64,000 nucleotides of DNA from a virus. The notes below the pieces were generated by a model. That model had not been told where the DNA came from and searched no databases. It was given only the letters and a program-made list of their open reading frames with translations. The stretch lies in the IMG/VR virus record IMGVR_UViG_3300024221_000009, positions 1 through 64,000 of that record, one strand, 5' to 3'. Position 1 is the stretch's first letter, and each line of letters opens with the position of its first letter. The position numbers were made by a program, and so were the translations under genes. Positions 54,678 through 64,000 of this stretch are shown piece by piece.

Positions 54678-57098
54678 ATGGCAAAAATGAATAAAATCAG
54701 TTCTTTTCAAACTTTTTCTGAAGTAAGAGAGGCTGAAAATGCTGATAAACTACAACAAGAAAATCAAGCTAAAAGATTAGAGCTAACAGAAAGAATAGGT
54801 AAAATATTAGATGAAATGGAAATAACATCTTTTGAAGACTTAGACGAAGAAGTTAGAGATCAATTAGTAGAAAAAACGTTCGGATTAGTTAAAGAAGGAG
54901 ATAAAACAAAAGTTTCTAAAAAAGAAATTAAAATGCATCTGGATATGTTCCAAGCAGGAGACATCGATGGTAATGATTTATCACAAGCTATTTCTGCAAT
55001 TATATTCGGAGAAGTAAAAGGACCGGGTATGGAATCTAAAGATTCTGAACAGGTTTCAGAAGCAACTGTTGTTATGGACGCAATAAACCCTGATGATAAA
55101 GATTTCTTAAAATTCTTAAAAAAGAATAAAGTTAAAGTAATTGACACTGTAAAATCAGGCCCAAGTGGACATCCTGAAATTACAATGCAAGGAAAAAGAA
55201 AAGATCTTGAAGCAGTATTAGCTGACGGTGAATTAGGATGGGATGATCCTGGTTTAGCAGAATTTATTGAAGAATCAATAAACATTTCAGAAGCAGTAAT
55301 AGTTACTGGTAGAAGAGACGCTAAAAAAGTTTTAACAGCATACACTAAATTTTTCCAAAAATATCCAGCATTAGCTGATAGGAGATTTGCAGGTTTACAT
55401 TTAGGAGCAATCAAATCCTTAATGGTTTCTGCATTAACAGATGCTAATTTTCATAGAGAATCAGCAGCGTGCGGAAAGTCTATTAAAGGAGCAAAGCTTC
55501 AACCTGTTTTTATTAAGCCAATGGAATTAAATAAAACAGAAATTAAAATACCTGTTGGTAAAGTAGCATCTATTTTAGATGATAATGCATCTCTTATTTC
55601 TGGTGCAGCCGGCTTTTCTGGTTTAGGTATTGCTGAAGGAACAGCATTATACTTAGATTCTCTTAAATATGTTAAAGAAGCAGAAGCAGTTATTGCATGT
55701 TTTAATTCTACGTTTGAAAGTGAAGTTACTGACGTAACAGAAGGTAATGCATTTTTAGGAGCTAGAGCTAAGGCTATTGAAGAAGATGCTGAAGAATTTG
55801 AATTTAACGGTAAAAAATATCCAGTAATTAAAGAATCAGAAGAAGTTACTGAATCAGCCGAACCAAAGTGTAATAATAAAAAAGGACATTTATATAAGCA
55901 AATTGATAAGGACGGAACGGTAGAATGCGTGCACTGTGGTCTAAGAAATTCATTAAGCGAATCAGAGGTTAATGAAGCTAAATCTTTTAAAAATACTGAA
56001 GATTTTGAAGCATTTTTAAAGGAAATCGATGCTATGCCAGAAAGAGCAGTTAGAAAGATAATGGGTAAAGAATATATCGATACTCCTGGTTTTTATGAAG
56101 ATGAAAAGGATGATTATGATGATGTAATTGACTTCATGATTTCAAACATGGGTGCAGATATTTATCACCAATTAGAACAGTGGTGGGAAAACAATGTTCA
56201 AGAATCAGCAGTTACTGAAGCTAAATTTGTAAAAGATTTTGATAAAGATGTTTTAGATGCTGAAACCAAAGCAGATATAACAACTTACTACCCTTCTGCT
56301 AAATTCTTTATAGGTAAATCAACCCACTTCTTCGGAGAATTAGATAAAAATTTATTTTTTAAAGCATATTATAAAGATTATGTAAAGAAGGCTGGTGGTA
56401 AAATCGATGGTGATTTTAAAATTGTAATGATATATTCTGAAAAAGGTAGAAATTTTGTACCTTTATTTACTAGAGAAGTTACTGAATCAGTGGTTACTGA
56501 AGCTAAAATTAATTCTGACGAAGAGTTTAAAGAATATGCTACAACTGTTTTACAAAAAGCGTTTGGTGAAGATTATGACGAAGCAAAAGCAAACGAAGTT
56601 ATTGATGGTATTTTAGCAAAAGTTGACGGAGATTACGGCGCTGCTGTAGGAATGTTAACATCTTCATTAGGAGAATCAGTAGTTACTGAAAAAACATATA
56701 ATAAAAAGTCTTTAATGAAAGCAATGAAAGCCGATGATGGTATGATACAATTAGGCAATGGTCAAGAATATGTTATCTACGCTTACGGTAATGGTAATGA
56801 TGATAACGACAATATGTGGGGAGATAAATCAATCTTTGCGTTAGACCAAGACGGCGAAGAGCATGAAATTGAATATTCTGATATTGTAAGTTATAATGAA
56901 GCTAACGCTGATGGAACTATTTCAGATGATGAAGACGAAAAAAGAGAAGAACTTTTAAATAGAGTTAAAGAACAAATGGAAGAGCTATTAGCATCTGCTG
57001 AATTTGATGCTAAAGAAATTGGTGGTTCTTTTAGATCTCCTGGTATTATGTTTGATATTAGAAAACAACTTGATAAGCAAGTTAAAAAGTTTAAATAA
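54678..57098 (+). CDS. modular polyprotein 1, putative protease-processed head cargo
   Basis: About 11 unrelated segments separated by ES-x-V-[TNS]-E-A linkers; late motif at 54634. Confidence 0.7.
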   Translation: MAKMNKISSFQTFSEVREAENADKLQQENQAKRLELTERIGKILDEMEITSFEDLDEEVRDQLVEKTFGLVKEGDKTKVSKKEIKMHLDMFQAGDIDGNDLSQAISAIIFGEVKGPGMESKDSEQVSEATVVMDAINPDDKDFLKFLKKNKVKVIDTVKSGPSGHPEITMQGKRKDLEAVLADGELGWDDPGLAEFIEESINISEAVIVTGRRDAKKVLTAYTKFFQKYPALADRRFAGLHLGAIKSLMVSALTDANFHRESAACGKSIKGAKLQPVFIKPMELNKTEIKIPVGKVASILDDNASLISGAAGFSGLGIAEGTALYLDSLKYVKEAEAVIACFNSTFESEVTDVTEGNAFLGARAKAIEEDAEEFEFNGKKYPVIKESEEVTESAEPKCNNKKGHLYKQIDKDGTVECVHCGLRNSLSESEVNEAKSFKNTEDFEAFLKEIDAMPERAVRKIMGKEYIDTPGFYEDEKDDYDDVIDFMISNMGADIYHQLEQWWENNVQESAVTEAKFVKDFDKDVLDAETKADITTYYPSAKFFIGKSTHFFGELDKNLFFKAYYKDYVKKAGGKIDGDFKIVMIYSEKGRNFVPLFTREVTESVVTEAKINSDEEFKEYATTVLQKAFGEDYDEAKANEVIDGILAKVDGDYGAAVGMLTSSLGESVVTEKTYNKKSLMKAMKADDGMIQLGNGQEYVIYAYGNGNDDNDNMWGDKSIFALDQDGEEHEIEYSDIVSYNEANADGTISDDEDEKREELLNRVKEQMEELLASAEFDAKEIGGSFRSPGIMFDIRKQLDKQVKKFK
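55833..56693 (+). repeat. dispersed in-frame linker repeat, consensus GAATCAGNRGTTAMTGAAGCTAAA
   Basis: Copies at 55833, 55959, 56202, 56484, 56673; weaker copies at 55032, 55272, 55716; also 61633. Confidence 0.85.
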
Positions 57099-57471: not shown

Positions 57472-58755
57472 ATGAAAATATTATCATTTAAAGATTTCTT
57501 AATAGAAAGAGAAAATAAAGAAGTATTAGACTCTAAATTAATTTTAGAAGGTGGGGCAGCAGGTCACATGTCACATCCATTTGATGAAAAAGATTTGACA
57601 TTTGCAGATTTTAAAAAGATAGTAACTGCTGGTCTTCAAGGTGAATTAAACTTTGAGGAAGAAGCAACTGAAAAAACGGATGGACAAAATGTATTTGCAA
57701 CAGTTCAAGATGGAGAAGTAAAATTTGCCAGAAATAAAACTGAATTAGCAAATCCAATGGACTTGGCTACTTTTAAGAATAAGTTTGAAGGACATCCAAG
57801 TAAATTAGTACAAGATACTTTTCAATTTGCTGCAGAAGATTTAGCAAACTCATTAAATAAATTATCCCCTAAAGATTTAGAAGTTTTTGATAATGGTAAA
57901 AACTGGATGAACATGGAGTTAATTTACTCTAAGAATCCAAACGTTATCTACTATGACCGCGATGTTATTCAATTTCATGGTATAAAGAAAACTGATGGTG
58001 AAGGTAATACTATTGGAGAAGATAACAAACCAGCAAGATCAATTGCGAAAGCAATGCAAGATCTTAAAATTAATGTTGGTAAAACATTTACAGTTATCCC
58101 ACCTCAAATTATTAAATTAGGTAAAGATTTAGAATTTGATAAAAATCAATCTAAATTTATAAAACAAATAGAAGCGTTAAGAGATCGTTATAAATTAACA
58201 GACGCTGATGAAGTTTCTAGATATCATGAAATGTGGTGGAGAGAAACAATAGATACAAATTTCCCTGATTTACAACAAGACTATAAAGAAGGTTTATTAT
58301 TAAGATGGGCTTATGGAAATAAGAAGTCTTTAAATATGAGAAGTCTTGCAAAGGAAATAGGAAAAGATGAAGCAGCTTCTGTTAAGAAATTCGACAAAGA
58401 AGATGTTAAAAAGAAATATAAAGAAAACATTAGACCTTTTGAAGATTTATTCTTAGAACTAGGATCTATAATTCTTAAAAATGCTTCTAATTTTGTAGCA
58501 GCAAATCCAGACAAGGAAATGCAAAGATTACATAATCAAATTAGAAGTGAATCAGAAAAAATTAAAAAAGGCGGAGGAGAAGCTCAAATTGCAAAAGTAG
58601 AAGCTGAACTTGCTAGGTTAGAAAGAATTGGTGGTGTAGAATCTATTATACCAACTGAAGGAATAGTCTTTGTATATAAAGGAAAAACAATGAAATTAAC
58701 AGGTACGTTTGCAGCCATTAATCAATTAATGGGAATTATAAAGTACGGAAGATAA
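57472..58755 (+). CDS. ATP-dependent ligase-like nucleotidyltransferase with capsid-targeting-like leader
   Basis: MKILSFKDFLIE..LILE|GGAAGHM; motif I TEKTDG, motif IV EGIVF, motif V MKL. Confidence 0.6.
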   Translation: MKILSFKDFLIERENKEVLDSKLILEGGAAGHMSHPFDEKDLTFADFKKIVTAGLQGELNFEEEATEKTDGQNVFATVQDGEVKFARNKTELANPMDLATFKNKFEGHPSKLVQDTFQFAAEDLANSLNKLSPKDLEVFDNGKNWMNMELIYSKNPNVIYYDRDVIQFHGIKKTDGEGNTIGEDNKPARSIAKAMQDLKINVGKTFTVIPPQIIKLGKDLEFDKNQSKFIKQIEALRDRYKLTDADEVSRYHEMWWRETIDTNFPDLQQDYKEGLLLRWAYGNKKSLNMRSLAKEIGKDEAASVKKFDKEDVKKKYKENIRPFEDLFLELGSIILKNASNFVAANPDKEMQRLHNQIRSESEKIKKGGGEAQIAKVEAELARLERIGGVESIIPTEGIVFVYKGKTMKLTGTFAAINQLMGIIKYGR

Positions 58756-58765
58756 ATAATATAAT

Positions 58766-60649
58766 ATGGCACTTAAAAAATTAAGAGAACATTTTCAAGA
58801 AACTAATATTAATGAGTTTCATAGATTGTTAAAAAATAGAGTAATGGTTGTTGAAAAAATTTCAGCACCATCTTTTTATGTTAGAAGAAATGAAGAAAAA
58901 TTTGAATTTTATAAATCTTCAAAATCTAAACCTCTAACAATAATAGATAGAACTATTATGTCTCTTTACGAAGTTGCCATTAAACATATACAAAGTTTAA
59001 ATCCTAAAAGTAAAAAACAATTACCAGATAATTATAGATTTGGTTTTGAATATTTACCAGAAGAAAAGGTTTCTGAATATGTATACACTAAAATACCTAA
59101 AAATACTTTAATATTAACGCACATCCACCAACTAGGTGAAAACGGAAAAGTAAAAAAGACAATTATAGATCCTTTAATTATAAAAAAATGGGCTACCGTA
59201 TTAGAAGTACAACAACAAGAAGTTATATTTGACGGAACTTTAGATTCAACTCAAAAAGAAAAGCTTATTAATTTATTAGAAATGAATGATAAAGCTTTTT
59301 CTGAGGCATTTGACTACGATATAGAAACGGATAAATTAGTTTCTTTCACAAAAGAAATATACAAGATATTTAATATTAATTCAACATCAAGCGTTCTTCA
59401 AGAGGATTTAGAATCTGAAATAGATGGTTTAGTTTTAAATTTTGCTGAAGGTAAAAAAATACAATCTTATAAATTAGAAGATTTTATTAGAAAACCTTTA
59501 AATGAAATTAGAGAAGGTTCTCATACATATCAAATAGCAATCGCAGATATATTAGAATATTTTGTTAATTATAATTTTTCAGAAACAAATTTAGTTGAAG
59601 AAAATGCAGAAAAAAGATATATAGAATTAATCTCAGCAGCATTTAACAAATACGTTAATAAAAACGCAACAAGATATATTGGAGTTAATTTCCAAAATGC
59701 AGAATTTTCTTCTTCTAAATTATTTAATTTAAATACAACATTCATTAAAAACGAAAAAACATTAACACATGTTTCAAATGAAGTTTTATCAAGTTTATTT
59801 AAAATAACATTAGGTACTTTTAGAAAGCATAAAACGAAAGCAACAGATATATTAAATGATGATATGATATCTCAATTAAATAATATAGTTGATAAAATCA
59901 ATGATGTTGTTTTTCTAGAAAAAGCAGACGAAAATTCTATATATAATTATAAGAATTTTATGATGCATAACAATATAAAAAGCGAAGTAACTTTAAATGA
60001 AGCGCTAACTGTTAAGCACGCTGAGCAAGGTAAAGAATTAGTAAATATGTTCGTTGGTAGATTTCAGCCATTCACATTAGGACACGCCAAAGTTTTAGAA
60101 GCAATTCACAAACAAAATGGATATCCAGTTATTGTATTTTTAATTAAAGCAAAATCTAAAAAGAAAGGTGACGAATTTAGAAAACCTTATTCTGAAGATT
60201 TACAAATTAAAATGTTTAAACAAGTTCAAAAGCAATATAAATTCTTAAAAGAAATTATAGTTCTTGATAGAGGTGCAATTGATTATATGTTTAACGAATT
60301 AAGACCTAAATACGAGCCAGTACTTTGGGGAACAGGATCAGACAGAATGACTTCTTATGGATATCAAGTAAATAATGATTCTTATAGAGATCAATTAAAT
60401 GTAAGATCCGATTTTGGTTTATTTGAAATACCAAGAACAGATAATAATATTTCAGCAACACAAGTAAGAAACGCAATGTTAGACGGTGATGAATCTTTAT
60501 TTAAAAAGACTACCCCAAAGGCAATTCATAAAATGTATGATGTTTTAAAGTCTGAACTTGAAAAATCTATGGAGATGGTTGCAGCTTCTAAAGTTGTATC
60601 AGAATCCGTTATGACATTTCAAGAATATATGAATAAATTAAAATCATAA
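58766..60649 (+). CDS. degenerate ligase-like domain fused to a HIGH-family (cytidylyl/adenylyl) nucleotidyltransferase
   Basis: VVEKIS and IDGLVL..YKL in the N-terminal part; VGRFQPFTLGH, GSDR and ISATQVR in the C-terminal part. Confidence 0.7.
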   Translation: MALKKLREHFQETNINEFHRLLKNRVMVVEKISAPSFYVRRNEEKFEFYKSSKSKPLTIIDRTIMSLYEVAIKHIQSLNPKSKKQLPDNYRFGFEYLPEEKVSEYVYTKIPKNTLILTHIHQLGENGKVKKTIIDPLIIKKWATVLEVQQQEVIFDGTLDSTQKEKLINLLEMNDKAFSEAFDYDIETDKLVSFTKEIYKIFNINSTSSVLQEDLESEIDGLVLNFAEGKKIQSYKLEDFIRKPLNEIREGSHTYQIAIADILEYFVNYNFSETNLVEENAEKRYIELISAAFNKYVNKNATRYIGVNFQNAEFSSSKLFNLNTTFIKNEKTLTHVSNEVLSSLFKITLGTFRKHKTKATDILNDDMISQLNNIVDKINDVVFLEKADENSIYNYKNFMMHNNIKSEVTLNEALTVKHAEQGKELVNMFVGRFQPFTLGHAKVLEAIHKQNGYPVIVFLIKAKSKKKGDEFRKPYSEDLQIKMFKQVQKQYKFLKEIIVLDRGAIDYMFNELRPKYEPVLWGTGSDRMTSYGYQVNNDSYRDQLNVRSDFGLFEIPRTDNNISATQVRNAMLDGDESLFKKTTPKAIHKMYDVLKSELEKSMEMVAASKVVSESVMTFQEYMNKLKS

Positions 60650-60696: not shown

Positions 60697-62907
60697 ATGG
60701 ATAAATCACACTTTAATCAAGATGATAGAGTAGATGAAGGGAAAATAACAATAAAAAGACGTTATACTGAAAACTACCCTGCAAAAACTGTTGGTAAATC
60801 AGCAAAAATAAGAAACAAAATGTTGGAAGCAATTTCGGACGGGGCTATTACCCAAGAAGAATTTGATTCTATCATAGCAGAATTATCATCTGATTCAAAA
60901 AGATGGTTATCTCGTAATTCTAGGTTATTTAATATTACAGAGGCTGGAATAACATTAACAGGGTTAGGTAGAAAGATTTTATCTCAAATTACAGTAAATG
61001 AAAAAACAGAAAAGAATCCAGAAATATGGGTTCCTGGAAAATTTGATAAAGAAGTTTCTAAATTATCAGCTGATGAATTAACACTAGACAATATAAAAAA
61101 ATTATCAAAAAAACATAGAGTATTTTTACAAGATGCAATAGCGTATGTTGAATATAGCTTCGATGTTGATATTGTAGAAAATAAAGAAAATAATATGAAA
61201 ACAAAATTAGTATTTGAATCTTTCGGAGATTTTGTAAACTCATTAGATAAAAATAATGAAGAATTAAACGAAGGCACTAGAGGCCAATTCGGAATGATTG
61301 ATAAAAAAGGAAATATACAGTCAGTATATATGCATTATGATTCATATCCTGAAAACATTCTACCATTAATAAAAAGAGGTTACGGAAACTCTAAAAAAGT
61401 ACAAGCAGTTATTGATAGAGGAGATACTTCTGGATTAGATAAAACAGTTGATACTATGAATTTCTATGAAGATGGTAGAAAGCCAACTTCAGGTAAAAAA
61501 GCAGACATTGCACGTTATATTAAAAAAGCAGCTGATGATGGTGGAGCAGAATACATCTATTTATATGATGAGTCTGATAAAACTTGGTACATGGTTGATG
61601 TTTATGGAGACATGCAATTAGTTCCTGCATTTGAATCAGTAATTAATGAAGCTGTAAACGCAACTGCTTATATTAAAGCTGGTAAATTAGGTTATAATGA
61701 TCAATTCTTAGCAAAGAGATCTTTATCATGGACATTATCAGTTGACTTAGGTCTAAAAGCATCTGATGAATTTGTCGGACCATGGTTAGGATTCGATTAT
61801 GTATCATTATATGCTATTGGTAAAAAAGGAGGAACAATTATTGATGATGCCTTAACTGGTAAATATACTTATGACGAATTAAAAGCAGCAGCAGCTGATT
61901 TTTTAGGTATTAAAGAATCAGAAGAAGCTTTAGGTGAATCAGAAGATACTGAACTTAATGAAGCATTTAAATCTTCTAAATTAAGAAATTTAGTAAATAT
62001 GGATCAATCACAACGTGATGGATATGGTAAAGCAAGAAATTTAGCAGCTGCTATTTATGGATTATCAAAACTAAAATTAGATAAAATTGAAGATTCTTCT
62101 TTAATTGATGTAGATCCTAAAGAAGCTTATAAAAAATATCAAAACAATAGAGACTATTTAGTTTTTTATATAGTAGACAACGAAAAAGAAAATGAATACA
62201 GCAAAGGTTCATTTACATCATTAATAAAACCAGGTATTTTAGCTTTAACCAGAGGAAAAGACTTTTTATCAGTTCAATATGTTCAATCTAGAAATAGATC
62301 AGTTGATCGTACTTTAGGAAAAGATGATGGTAATGCAATTGGTGGTAATAAAAGATATTCTGGATATGATGCATCGGGTATTTCTTCAGTTGTAAGAGCT
62401 TCTAAATTAGCAGACAGAGCAATTGTAATTGATATTGTTAATGGTGGCGAAACTTCAAAAGAAGAAAGAAACGAAAGAGCAAGAGCAAAAGAAGGAGCTT
62501 TAGCTTTTAAATCTGACGCAGACTTTAAGAAAGCTAACAAGGCAAGATACCAAGAAATCTTATCAACTAAAGCTTCTAAGTTACCTCTTGATAAAATGGT
62601 TAATGACGCTATTGATGATTTAGGAAATCAAATTAAAGATGGTCTTAAGGCTAATAAAAAGACAGAATACGGAGAGCTTAAAATTGGAGAAAATTCTAAA
62701 GGTAGAGCAGTTAAAATCACAGATGCTTCAAACCACATGGGTAGAATCTTATCTGATTATCAAAGATATGTTGAATACATGGTAAAAGCAGAAGAAGAAA
62801 AAGGTAGAGATTATTCATCAGGATATTACGAAAAGAATTCAAAACAATACGCTAAAGATATTAAAGATGCAGTTAAAAAAATACCTACGTTCGATTACGC
62901 TTGGTAA
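60697..62907 (+). CDS. modular polyprotein 2
   Basis: Segments delimited by VDE|G, VNE|K, LNE|G, ESVINE|A, ES..ELNE|A; late motif at 60659. Confidence 0.65.
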   Translation: MDKSHFNQDDRVDEGKITIKRRYTENYPAKTVGKSAKIRNKMLEAISDGAITQEEFDSIIAELSSDSKRWLSRNSRLFNITEAGITLTGLGRKILSQITVNEKTEKNPEIWVPGKFDKEVSKLSADELTLDNIKKLSKKHRVFLQDAIAYVEYSFDVDIVENKENNMKTKLVFESFGDFVNSLDKNNEELNEGTRGQFGMIDKKGNIQSVYMHYDSYPENILPLIKRGYGNSKKVQAVIDRGDTSGLDKTVDTMNFYEDGRKPTSGKKADIARYIKKAADDGGAEYIYLYDESDKTWYMVDVYGDMQLVPAFESVINEAVNATAYIKAGKLGYNDQFLAKRSLSWTLSVDLGLKASDEFVGPWLGFDYVSLYAIGKKGGTIIDDALTGKYTYDELKAAAADFLGIKESEEALGESEDTELNEAFKSSKLRNLVNMDQSQRDGYGKARNLAAAIYGLSKLKLDKIEDSSLIDVDPKEAYKKYQNNRDYLVFYIVDNEKENEYSKGSFTSLIKPGILALTRGKDFLSVQYVQSRNRSVDRTLGKDDGNAIGGNKRYSGYDASGISSVVRASKLADRAIVIDIVNGGETSKEERNERARAKEGALAFKSDADFKKANKARYQEILSTKASKLPLDKMVNDAIDDLGNQIKDGLKANKKTEYGELKIGENSKGRAVKITDASNHMGRILSDYQRYVEYMVKAEEEKGRDYSSGYYEKNSKQYAKDIKDAVKKIPTFDYAW

Positions 62908-62908
62908 T

Positions 62909-64000
62909 ATGAAAACAATGTATACATCATTTAGCGAATTTTCAAGAGGGATTAAAGAAAACATTTCACCAGAAAGTATTGGAGGAATGGGAGATGTTAT
63001 ATTACCGAATGGTGATGAACTAGGTTCTGGCGATATTCCTTCTGAAGAAGATGATGAAAATAAAGAAAAAATAAATACAAAATCTATGGATTTTAATAGT
63101 TTTATAAACAAATCAACGGTTAGTAAATTAGTCATTGAGAAATCAGCAACAGATACTCTAGCGGATGATGTTTCTGGAGAATTATATATTGCAAAACTTA
63201 AAGGCAAGTCAGCTACTATTAAAGCAACGACTACGACAAAGACATGGGATGATGGAGTCCCGGTATTAAAGTATTTAGCAAGAGGTAAAAGTAAATCAAT
63301 GTCTTTTGATTTATATCAAAGACCTTTTCAAGTGGTACACGACTATGCACATGGCTGGTGGTACTTCACAGATGGTGGAAAATGGTACGGATTGCACGTA
63401 AGCGACGGTTATAGTGAAGCTGCTGATTTACCATTCGATATGCAAATTCCAGAAAACAAAATACAAGAAGGTGTTATGTCTGACATTCACCAAATGATAG
63501 GTAATCATAAAACTTTTGATTCATTTCAAAAAGAATTCTTTAAAGAATATGGAGATAATAAAGCTATGAAAAAAACCAAAGACTTTTTAGAATGGCTAGA
63601 AGCTTTATATTCAGATTCACAATATGCAGTATCTGAGGCAAGACCAGGTACTTACACGTACCAAATGGATAGTGAAGGAAATACTAGAAAAGTATTACCG
63701 CCATATTATGGTAATTCAGAACTTCATGATAAATCAAAAGAACTATTTAAAAAACCATGGAAAAAGCTTAGTGATAAACAACAAGATGAAGTTTTAGCAG
63801 CCTTTGAAATAGTTGAAGCAAGATCAATTGCAAAAATACAAAAAGAATATGGAAGTGTAGTAACTGATATGAAAGATCTTGTTAAAGATTATGTAAAAAT
63901 GTCAGATGATAATTCTGAAAAAGCTAAGACAAGACAATTACTTATAGATTTAACTTCTAAGAAAAAATCATTAATGTCAGAATTAGATGACGCAGTAGGT
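62909..64000 (+). CDS. modular polyprotein 3, 3'-truncated by the window (not in ORF track)
   Basis: ATG 62909, open for 364 codons to the window end; MKTMYTSFSEF..IKE; IQE|G, VSE|A, IVE|A. Confidence 0.75.
   Translation, partial: MKTMYTSFSEFSRGIKENISPESIGGMGDVILPNGDELGSGDIPSEEDDENKEKINTKSMDFNSFINKSTVSKLVIEKSATDTLADDVSGELYIAKLKGKSATIKATTTTKTWDDGVPVLKYLARGKSKSMSFDLYQRPFQVVHDYAHGWWYFTDGGKWYGLHVSDGYSEAADLPFDMQIPENKIQEGVMSDIHQMIGNHKTFDSFQKEFFKEYGDNKAMKKTKDFLEWLEALYSDSQYAVSEARPGTYTYQMDSEGNTRKVLPPYYGNSELHDKSKELFKKPWKKLSDKQQDEVLAAFEIVEARSIAKIQKEYGSVVTDMKDLVKDYVKMSDDNSEKAKTRQLLIDLTSKKKSLMSELDDAVG

Follow-up and report, generated by a model that had tools for sequence, protein, structure and literature searches.

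A putative modular head-cargo polyprotein with an apparently captured domain in an uncultured marine jumbo phage

The locus and its source

The DNA analysed here, a window of 64,000 bases, is the first 64 kb of the 91,386-base IMG/VR record IMGVR_UViG_3300024221_000009. At 60697-62907 it contains an open reading frame (ORF) whose 736-amino-acid product falls into a short propeptide and five modules, A to E, joined by linkers (Table 1). We consider it likely that this ORF encodes a modular polyprotein of phage head cargo, with predicted cuts at its linkers, one module (C) captured from a family of stand-alone phage proteins and a retained internal start. The earlier note on this DNA, made from the letters alone, had placed the ORF, the ATG at 61195 and the segment 61273-61635 with its flanks LNE and SVINEA, and all of these positions are correct.

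Judged from its sequence, the source is an uncultured marine jumbo myovirus, distantly T4-like. PHROG matches in the window include a gp6-like baseplate wedge, a gp5-like hub, a gp32-like single-stranded DNA-binding protein, a primase, a gp41-like helicase and UvsY; the G+C content is 30%, and essentially all long ORFs lie on the + strand. CheckV assigns a completeness of 28% to the record and of 41-75% to relatives of 125-205 kb, figures that therefore correspond to jumbo phages of roughly 240-320 kb. The portal DNA is 73% identical to that of a 462-kb record labelled 'uncultured phage', and the stretch recurs in numerous seawater metagenomes and also in six metatranscriptome assemblies from seawater. 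Throughout the record, gene starts have no Shine-Dalgarno sequence and leaders are A-rich, a pattern that would be compatible with a host using Shine-Dalgarno-independent initiation, Bacteroidota being one example. TATAAT-like strings also occur 10-25 bases 5' of many genes of the record.

An assembly error fusing two genes is ruled out by the recovery of the identical 736-residue protein on 41 contigs and by contigs from DNA and RNA libraries that cross 61195 without indels. The sequencing runs were compared as assembled contigs, which are uninformative on transcript ends, strand and level and, apart from crossing 61195 intact, on any internal promoter or start; the RNA libraries may contain DNA.

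A family of stand-alone phage proteins within the chain

Module C (GTRGQFGMI...SVYMHYDSYP...GAEYIYLYDESDKTWY...PAFE) is preceded by L190-N191-E192 and followed by S314-V-I-N-E318/A319, where a slash marks a predicted cut or the residue boundary aligned with it. The segment matches the profile of phrog_1987, an uncharacterised phage family, with an E-value of 4.5e-18, its residues 1-110 aligning with profile positions 2-117 of 128, and a phmmer search against 1.84 billion representatives returned 854 matches. The widespread, free-standing phage family to which the earlier note had likened the segment is real.

In stand-alone proteins of 105-147 amino acids (n~50), Met alone precedes the domain and the N-termini read M/ATRS, M/STRS and similar (M-[A/S]-T-R). 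Residue 2 of the query aligns with residue 3 of these proteins, so that their Met falls on Glu192 of LNE/. Single-module proteins of 134-180 amino acids (n=11) have a T4-like head tag, then [LIV]xE/ and then [G/S]TR, as in MKNIKLFEEFINEKPINE/GTRS (P0162) and MNNIKNFSDFINESQEINE/GTRS (P0165). Where the domain is embedded in a longer chain, [LIV]-x-E stands immediately before it in 112 of 113 copies. The short single-module genes as first sorted numbered 14, with [LIV]-x-E before [GAS]-T-R in 11, the other three being mis-sorted stand-alone genes. At the opposite end, single-module genes terminate at the position of ...PAF in the window; with gene ends of relatives at both its N- and C-terminal edges, both ends of module C therefore coincide with gene ends elsewhere. 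Module C itself, internal to the 736-residue ORF, has no start codon of its own, Glu192 occupying the position of the Met.

These alignments agree with the proposal that the initiator Met had been replaced by the predicted cleavage site. Searched alone, the segment finds relatives that start and end at the linker boundaries; homology does not run across the linkers, and stand-alone homologues exist.

Of the 43 sequences compared, among them that of the window, all have T2 and Y96, and at least 90% keep G7, Y19, H21, D23, G24, G50, Y65 and W105, the window departing from the family at G24, which is S here (HYDSYP). Stand-alone members include genes of cyanomyoviruses (Synechococcus) and genes of Streptococcus suis prophages that lie between terminase and portal; this position lends no support to the idea that the domain derives from a 'cytoplasmic early protein'. 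As to function, module C has no match in Pfam or NCBIfam; a sequence-profile search of the PDB gave a best E-value of 0.46, Foldseek against the PDB a best E-value of 0.08, and a wide VIA-align search a best Z of 4.2, inside the noise range. The protein atlas returned only unnamed viral clusters, and BFVD only uncharacterised phage proteins, among them fold matches in Cronobacter phage GAP32 and Campylobacter phage PC5 (template modelling score 0.75-0.77).

At 61321-61358, 38 bases that contain the conserved SVYMHYDSYPEN core of the module, contigs fork in all four sequencing runs, and the deeper-covered contigs match this stretch with three mismatches before diverging into other sequence. Co-occurring phages therefore hold near-identical DNA at the module C core.

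Predicted cleavage sites, head tags and a prohead protease gene

The prohead protease of T4, gp21, cuts at L/I-x-E (PMC9026906). Five such sites are predicted in the ORF (VDE14/, VNE102/, LNE192/, INE318/ and LNE422/), and they match both the breakpoints of alignments with relatives and the linkers predicted with low confidence. The narrow motif [LIV][TN]E[AGSK] occurs five times in the ORF against 0.35 expected, a count reached in 0 of 5000 shuffles. Its density is 4.4 per 1000 amino acids in the ORFs of the putative cargo cluster to which the polyprotein gene belongs and 0.72 in the rest of the 91-kb record, a six-fold enrichment, and in the cluster's two polyproteins it lies more than ten-fold above shuffles.

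AlphaFold predicted the full-length chain with a template modelling score (pTM) of 0.31 and a local confidence (predicted local distance difference test, pLDDT) below 50 at residues 1-34, 99-109, 161-194, 313-338 and 404-422. These stretches take in all five predicted sites, and shorter dips also occur within modules C, D and E. Module A has a predicted helix-helix-helix-hairpin-helix topology and weak Foldseek matches to the winged-helix DNA-binding domains of CggR, PadR and MarR (probability <=0.99, E >0.1). With the whole model, Foldseek found nothing at E<=0.001 and gave weak winged-helix matches only, probably on module A. Neither Pfam nor NCBIfam has a family above cut-off anywhere on the ORF; Toxin_BN_H (Pfam, residues 137-224; 19.8 bits, cut-off 52.2) covers a helical linker of low confidence and was dismissed as chance.

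The genome encodes a candidate enzyme for these sites. An ORF starting at 89684 carries a Peptidase_S77 domain of the T4 gp21 type (89717-90091; 46.6 bits against a cut-off of 27), and the gene is also present in four of five long relatives. Beyond this domain the same ORF (89684-91386) has a scaffold-like tail, over 350 amino acids long and extremely Glu-rich, repetitive and acidic, that runs off the contig.

The capsid-targeting sequence (CTS) of T4 reads MKTYQEFIAE (PMC8442874), and within it residues 4 and 7 target whereas 8 and 10 direct processing (PMC9026906). The genes adjoining the polyprotein ORF begin MKKAKLYEEFINE, MKILSFKDFLIE and MKTMYTSFSEF, and a tag inside the ORF, F176-x-x-F179-V180, has the T4 spacing (aromatic, Phe at +3, Ile/Val at +4). 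Between portal and protease lies a small gene (89273-89614) that begins MKKVRLYEDFIAE, nearly the T4 CTS. In the T4 gene order this position belongs to gp67/gp68. Tag-like N-termini (MKILSFKDFLIE and MALKKLREHFQE) are likewise found on two enzyme-like genes, 57472-58755 and 58766-60649, the latter with a cytidylyltransferase-like (nucleotidyltransferase-like) domain (Pfam E 1.6e-10) behind a TLNE/A site; their products may be packaged enzymes.

Modularity among relatives

The whole ORF has 470 homologues at E<=1e-3, of which the best 120 were used for comparing modules. Among these, modules A, B, C and D are variably present and module E is constant. Of 277 breakpoints internal to the alignments, 172 are no more than six residues away from one of the five sites, against 8.8% expected, and the remainder lie within linkers. 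Internal alignment starts bunch at residue 12 (44 high-scoring pairs), and the propeptide is a diverged counterpart of the head tags of relatives, MNFQDFLNE/ and MFESFDDFINE/.

Individual relatives illustrate the exchange of parts. P0008 has a module E that is 89% identical and a tag joined straight to it, without C and D; P0010 has the tag followed by D, without C; P0043 carries D twice in tandem; and L029 encodes tag plus E (twice) and tag plus D as separate genes in the same neighbourhood. Module C also occurs within orthologues of the neighbouring polyprotein ORF 54678 in L079, L081 and others, and it therefore moves between genes. The linker DNA that follows module C (61630-61656, GAATCAGTAATTAATGAAGCT) shares 20 of 27 bases with the ESVVTEA linkers of ORF 54678 (56481-56507), and such microhomology could help modules to move between genes. 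At the other end of the chain, the last residues of module E, Y-A-W (62896-62904), are invariant in 18 aligned relatives, which suggests that a free C-terminus of this module matters.

A conserved internal start codon and tag

The in-frame ATG at 61195 encodes Met167 in the context aataaagaaaataatATGaaaaca and is followed by MKTKLVFESFGDFVNSLDKNNEELNE. Nearly all relatives have the corresponding motif, M-x(2-6)-[F/Y/M]-E-S-F-x-x-F, at an internal position, and the same MKT...ESFxxF motif is truly N-terminal in other genes, in P0062 (twice there) and in the split genes of L029. A Met lies at most 10 residues before the ESFxxF core in 74 of 78 distinct internal contexts, against 22% by chance (75 of 79 in a second count), and Met and tag persist across relatives at 40-60% identity. 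The spacing from Met to core is variable, which would be odd for a structural residue.

The surroundings of these codons resemble those of starts. The A content of positions -20 to -1 is 0.68 for internal tag ATGs (26 distinct contexts), compared with 0.39 for other internal ATGs of the same ORFs and 0.52 for the first ATGs of long ORFs, and the respective local folding energies are -0.7, -4.1 and -1.5 kcal/mol. Codon two is AAA in 22 of the 26 contexts. The four cores that lack a Met also lack the Asn/Lys-rich tract (0.06 vs 0.44), and together with the leader of the internal ATG this would fit a working initiation region in a system free of Shine-Dalgarno sequences.

With Met and tag kept in about 95% of relatives behind a start-like leader, the element therefore looks selected rather than decaying. 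The earlier description of a 'fossil gene start' was apt in that MKT...ESFxxF is homologous to the true starts of P0062 and of the split L029 genes, and 'fossil' is the word that does not hold. Met167 and its tag look to be under selection as an internal head tag, as a second start or as both. That 61195 is a real second translation start is possible, in our estimate at somewhat less than an even chance.

Inspection by eye found no TATAAT-type motif just 5' of 61195. The string TAATATGAAAACA occurs at 61191 and again at 62905, where a true stop/start lies, and we take it as a by-product of A-rich leaders combined with Met-Lys-Thr. For the gene that follows, the ORF list gives a start at 62867, although the ATG at 62909, with its T4-like tag, is the likelier start.

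Table 1. Features of the polyprotein ORF and of its neighbours; residue numbers refer to the 736-residue product
Feature	Position	Strand	Basis or remark
Whole polyprotein ORF	60697..62907	+	736 amino acids plus stop; 41 contigs with identical protein
N-terminal propeptide, residues 1-14 (MDKSHFNQDDRVDE/G)	60697..60738	+	alignment starts near residue 12; pLDDT <50
Module A, residues 15-102, conserved KRRYTENxPA unit, ends VNE/K	60739..61002	+	alignments, predicted structure
Module B, residues 103-166, three-helix unit	61003..61194	+	missing from many relatives; predicted structure
Internal ATG (Met167), T4-CTS-like tag MKTKLVFESFGDFV, spacer and predicted site L-N-E192/	61195..61272	+	sequence, relatives
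Module C, residues 193-313, phrog_1987 domain (GTRGQFG...YMHYDSYP...EYIYLY...W...PAFE)	61273..61635	+	profile match; folded alone, pLDDT 95.9 (AlphaFold 2)
Linker SVINE318/A	61636..61650	+	motif, breakpoints; 20/27 bases in common with linker of ORF 54678
Module D, residues 319-407 (KAGKLGYNDQF...)	61651..61917	+	alone behind head tag in L029; tandem duplicate in P0043
Acidic linker, three candidate sites (IKE/, LGE/, LNE422/A)	61918..61962	+	pLDDT <50 at 404-422
Module E, residues 423-736	61963..62904	+	C-terminal in every one of the best 120 relatives; separate CTS-led gene in L029
Neighbouring polyprotein, same cluster	54678..57098	+	orthologues in other phages contain module C
Next putative cargo gene	62909..64000	+	likely true start MKTMYTSFSEF, one base past the stop of ORF 60697-62907

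Proposed mechanism and alternatives

By analogy with T4, we propose that the folded units A to E are joined by short disordered linkers, each ending in the [L/I/V]-x-Glu motif of gp21/S77 proteases, and that tags of the T4 type (aromatic-x-x-Phe-[I/V]) would bring the chain to the scaffolding core. Once the prohead is assembled, the S77 protease would cut the linkers and set the units free within the capsid, from which they would enter the host along with the DNA. Module C would have been taken, most simply once, from the stand-alone family phrog_1987, with the P1 Glu of the junction in place of the initiator Met; since Glu192 holds that position, the cut would yield the same [G/A/S]-Thr-Arg end that Met removal yields in the stand-alone protein. 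Met167 and its tag would have been kept from the start of a formerly independent CTS-led gene, selected as an internal head tag and, in this scheme, probably as a second start too. The 'injected cargo' of the earlier note is likewise an inference from the T4 precedent.

The units might instead be scaffold, core or inner-body parts, either expelled after cleavage in the manner of T4 gp22, gp67 and gp68 or kept as a body as in phiKZ-like phages, a reading to which we give a small chance. The jumbo size of the phage would suit it, as would the strong conservation of module E, which is present and always C-terminal in all of the best 120 relatives and has an invariant end, and T4 core proteins are indeed cut at many sites (PMC9026906). 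Set against this, the modules are compact, folded and free of internal sites, and their set changes freely between close relatives, as accessory cargo would. Module C, moreover, works free in unrelated phages without this head type, and the tagged neighbouring genes include a nucleotidyltransferase-like enzyme.

There is also a slim chance that the ORF encodes an ordinary uncleaved multidomain protein, present as one chain in the cytoplasm or bound to the virion, in which [LIV]xE belongs to flexible linkers inherited with the modules. The loosest form of the motif, [LIVM]xE, is hardly enriched in the cluster (23.7 vs 20.4 per 1000 amino acids), and the module C junctions share ancestry, as such a reading would have it. 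The narrow motif, by contrast, shows the enrichment over the record and over shuffles given above and stands at every module boundary, and before module C the motif is kept in 112 of 113 copies regardless of what lies upstream. In the stand-alone family this very residue is always a free N-terminus, and the genome encodes both an S77 protease and T4-like tags. Module C in this respect serves as an internal control: its relatives always begin at the residue that the predicted cut would expose, which is strong indirect evidence for cut linkers.

The direction of transfer was examined in an unrooted tree of 133 domain sequences drawn from the 150 representatives nearest the query. Tagged and embedded copies share one side of a branch 0.73 in length (Shimodaira-Hasegawa-like approximate likelihood ratio test 85), single and embedded forms switch 10-11 times, and a single clade for all 84 recruited copies is not rejected (approximately unbiased test, p-AU 0.994). 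The simplest history would be a single capture followed by repeated fusion and fission. In the free tree, the embedded copy of P0261, a 296-residue metagenomic protein (LLTE/STRS), groups with stand-alone forms and may represent a second capture, although the single clade for all recruited copies stands unrejected. Because the tree is unrooted and holds nearest representatives only, the direction is judged from the free forms, which are much more divergent and more widely spread among hosts. We regard the reverse course, in which free phrog_1987 genes broke out of polyproteins and acquired a start codon where the cut would fall, as very improbable: the unrooted tree, the frequent switches and the fission seen in L029 would allow it, whereas the stand-alone forms are far more divergent (end branches 0.6-2.3 vs about 0.1-0.5), occur in unrelated Streptococcus and Synechococcus phages and have similar predicted folds among uncharacterised proteins of Cronobacter, Campylobacter, Yersinia, Listeria and Roseobacter phages, and the tagged and embedded forms can all be one clade.

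Several observations weigh against a cleaved cargo polyprotein with a captured module and a retained start. The ORF's own N-terminus (MDKSHFNQDDRVDE/) is a weak tag variant, the strong tag being internal at Met167; the cluster lies about 25 kb away from the head genes; and modules A, B, D and E were found in no cultured relative. The 112 junctions before module C go back to one or few ancestors, so that they are not independent events, and an unrooted tree of nearest representatives leaves capture versus escape to parsimony. As for the internal start, the 26 contexts are phylogenetically related, a requirement for an Asn/Lys-rich peptide could account for the A-rich tract, and four relatives keep the ESFxxF core without the Met, the core therefore having a role independent of initiation.

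An extension of the proposal is speculative and, in our view, on the unlikely side. The cargo cluster would be a system of plug-in cassettes, in which any small phage gene set behind a tag or a linker would be delivered in the virion, and the conserved internal ATGs, with their A-rich and unstructured leaders, would be second starts that yield nested, separately tagged cargo sets of differing copy number from one mRNA. To act, presumably against host defence and from the onset of infection, module C would require the free [G/A/S]-Thr-Arg end.

Comparison with known systems

The closest likeness is to the internal proteins IPI through IPIII and to Alt of T4, whose N-terminal tag has an aromatic residue, Phe three residues on, Ile/Val and Glu (PMC8442874); compare MKTYQEFIAE of T4 with MKKVRLYEDFIAE of this phage and MFESFDDFINE of its relatives. 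The two systems further resemble each other in the cut after L/I-x-Glu, predicted here, and in the presence of an S77 prohead protease gene (PMC9026906), as well as in diverse, fast-changing payloads behind a conserved tag (PMC9026906, PMC3012670, PMC8442874). T4 cargo, however, consists of single genes whose products are cut once (Alt at both ends), whereas here up to five or more unrelated units are chained with a predicted site at each joint, tags recur within the chain and units move between genes. The payloads are not homologous to the T4 internal proteins.

The polyvalent proteins of phages and conjugative elements (Iyer et al. 2017) likewise unite many unrelated domains, which also occur solo elsewhere, in one phage polypeptide predicted to be packaged and delivered with the DNA (PMC5512222). 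With five independently distributed modules, the protein lies within the two to fifteen domains by which that class is defined (PMC5512222). Fusions to MuF or portal proteins, zincin-like peptidases and ADP-ribosyltransferases, among similar domains, are typical of polyvalent proteins, and any processing is autoproteolytic (PMC5512222), whereas Pfam and NCBIfam detect no such domain here and the head-maturation protease would release the units at short linkers that recur along the chain.

The jumbo phages phiKZ, 201phi2-1 and SPN3US have a diverged gp21-like protease that cuts many head proteins after Glu in short motifs, often at more than one place in a protein (PMC9026906, PMC10052503). Processing in these phages frees paralogous inner-body proteins of their propeptides and does not part unrelated modules, and no CTS of the T4 type has been described there. 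We found no sequence similarity to these phages. With phrog_1987, whose members have about 105-150 amino acids, module C shares T2, Y19, H21, D23, Y96 and W105, and it differs in lacking a start codon of its own and in standing behind a predicted protease site inside a longer chain.

A literature search found no paper describing this arrangement. If true, the proposal would provide a rule for predicting virion-delivered proteins in uncultured phages and would point to numerous candidates for effectors that act early or for anti-defence proteins. It would also offer natural linkers and tags for engineered multi-protein delivery, together with a tractable example of nested starts of translation in a host independent of Shine-Dalgarno sequences. 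In none of the three systems, T4 internal proteins and Alt, polyvalent proteins and phiKZ-like head processing, do recurrent T4-type tags go together with head-protease sites that separate unrelated and exchangeable modules. For decades the T4 capsid-targeting tag has served to bring foreign proteins into phage heads, and abundant marine jumbo phages appear to do the same naturally and on a large scale.

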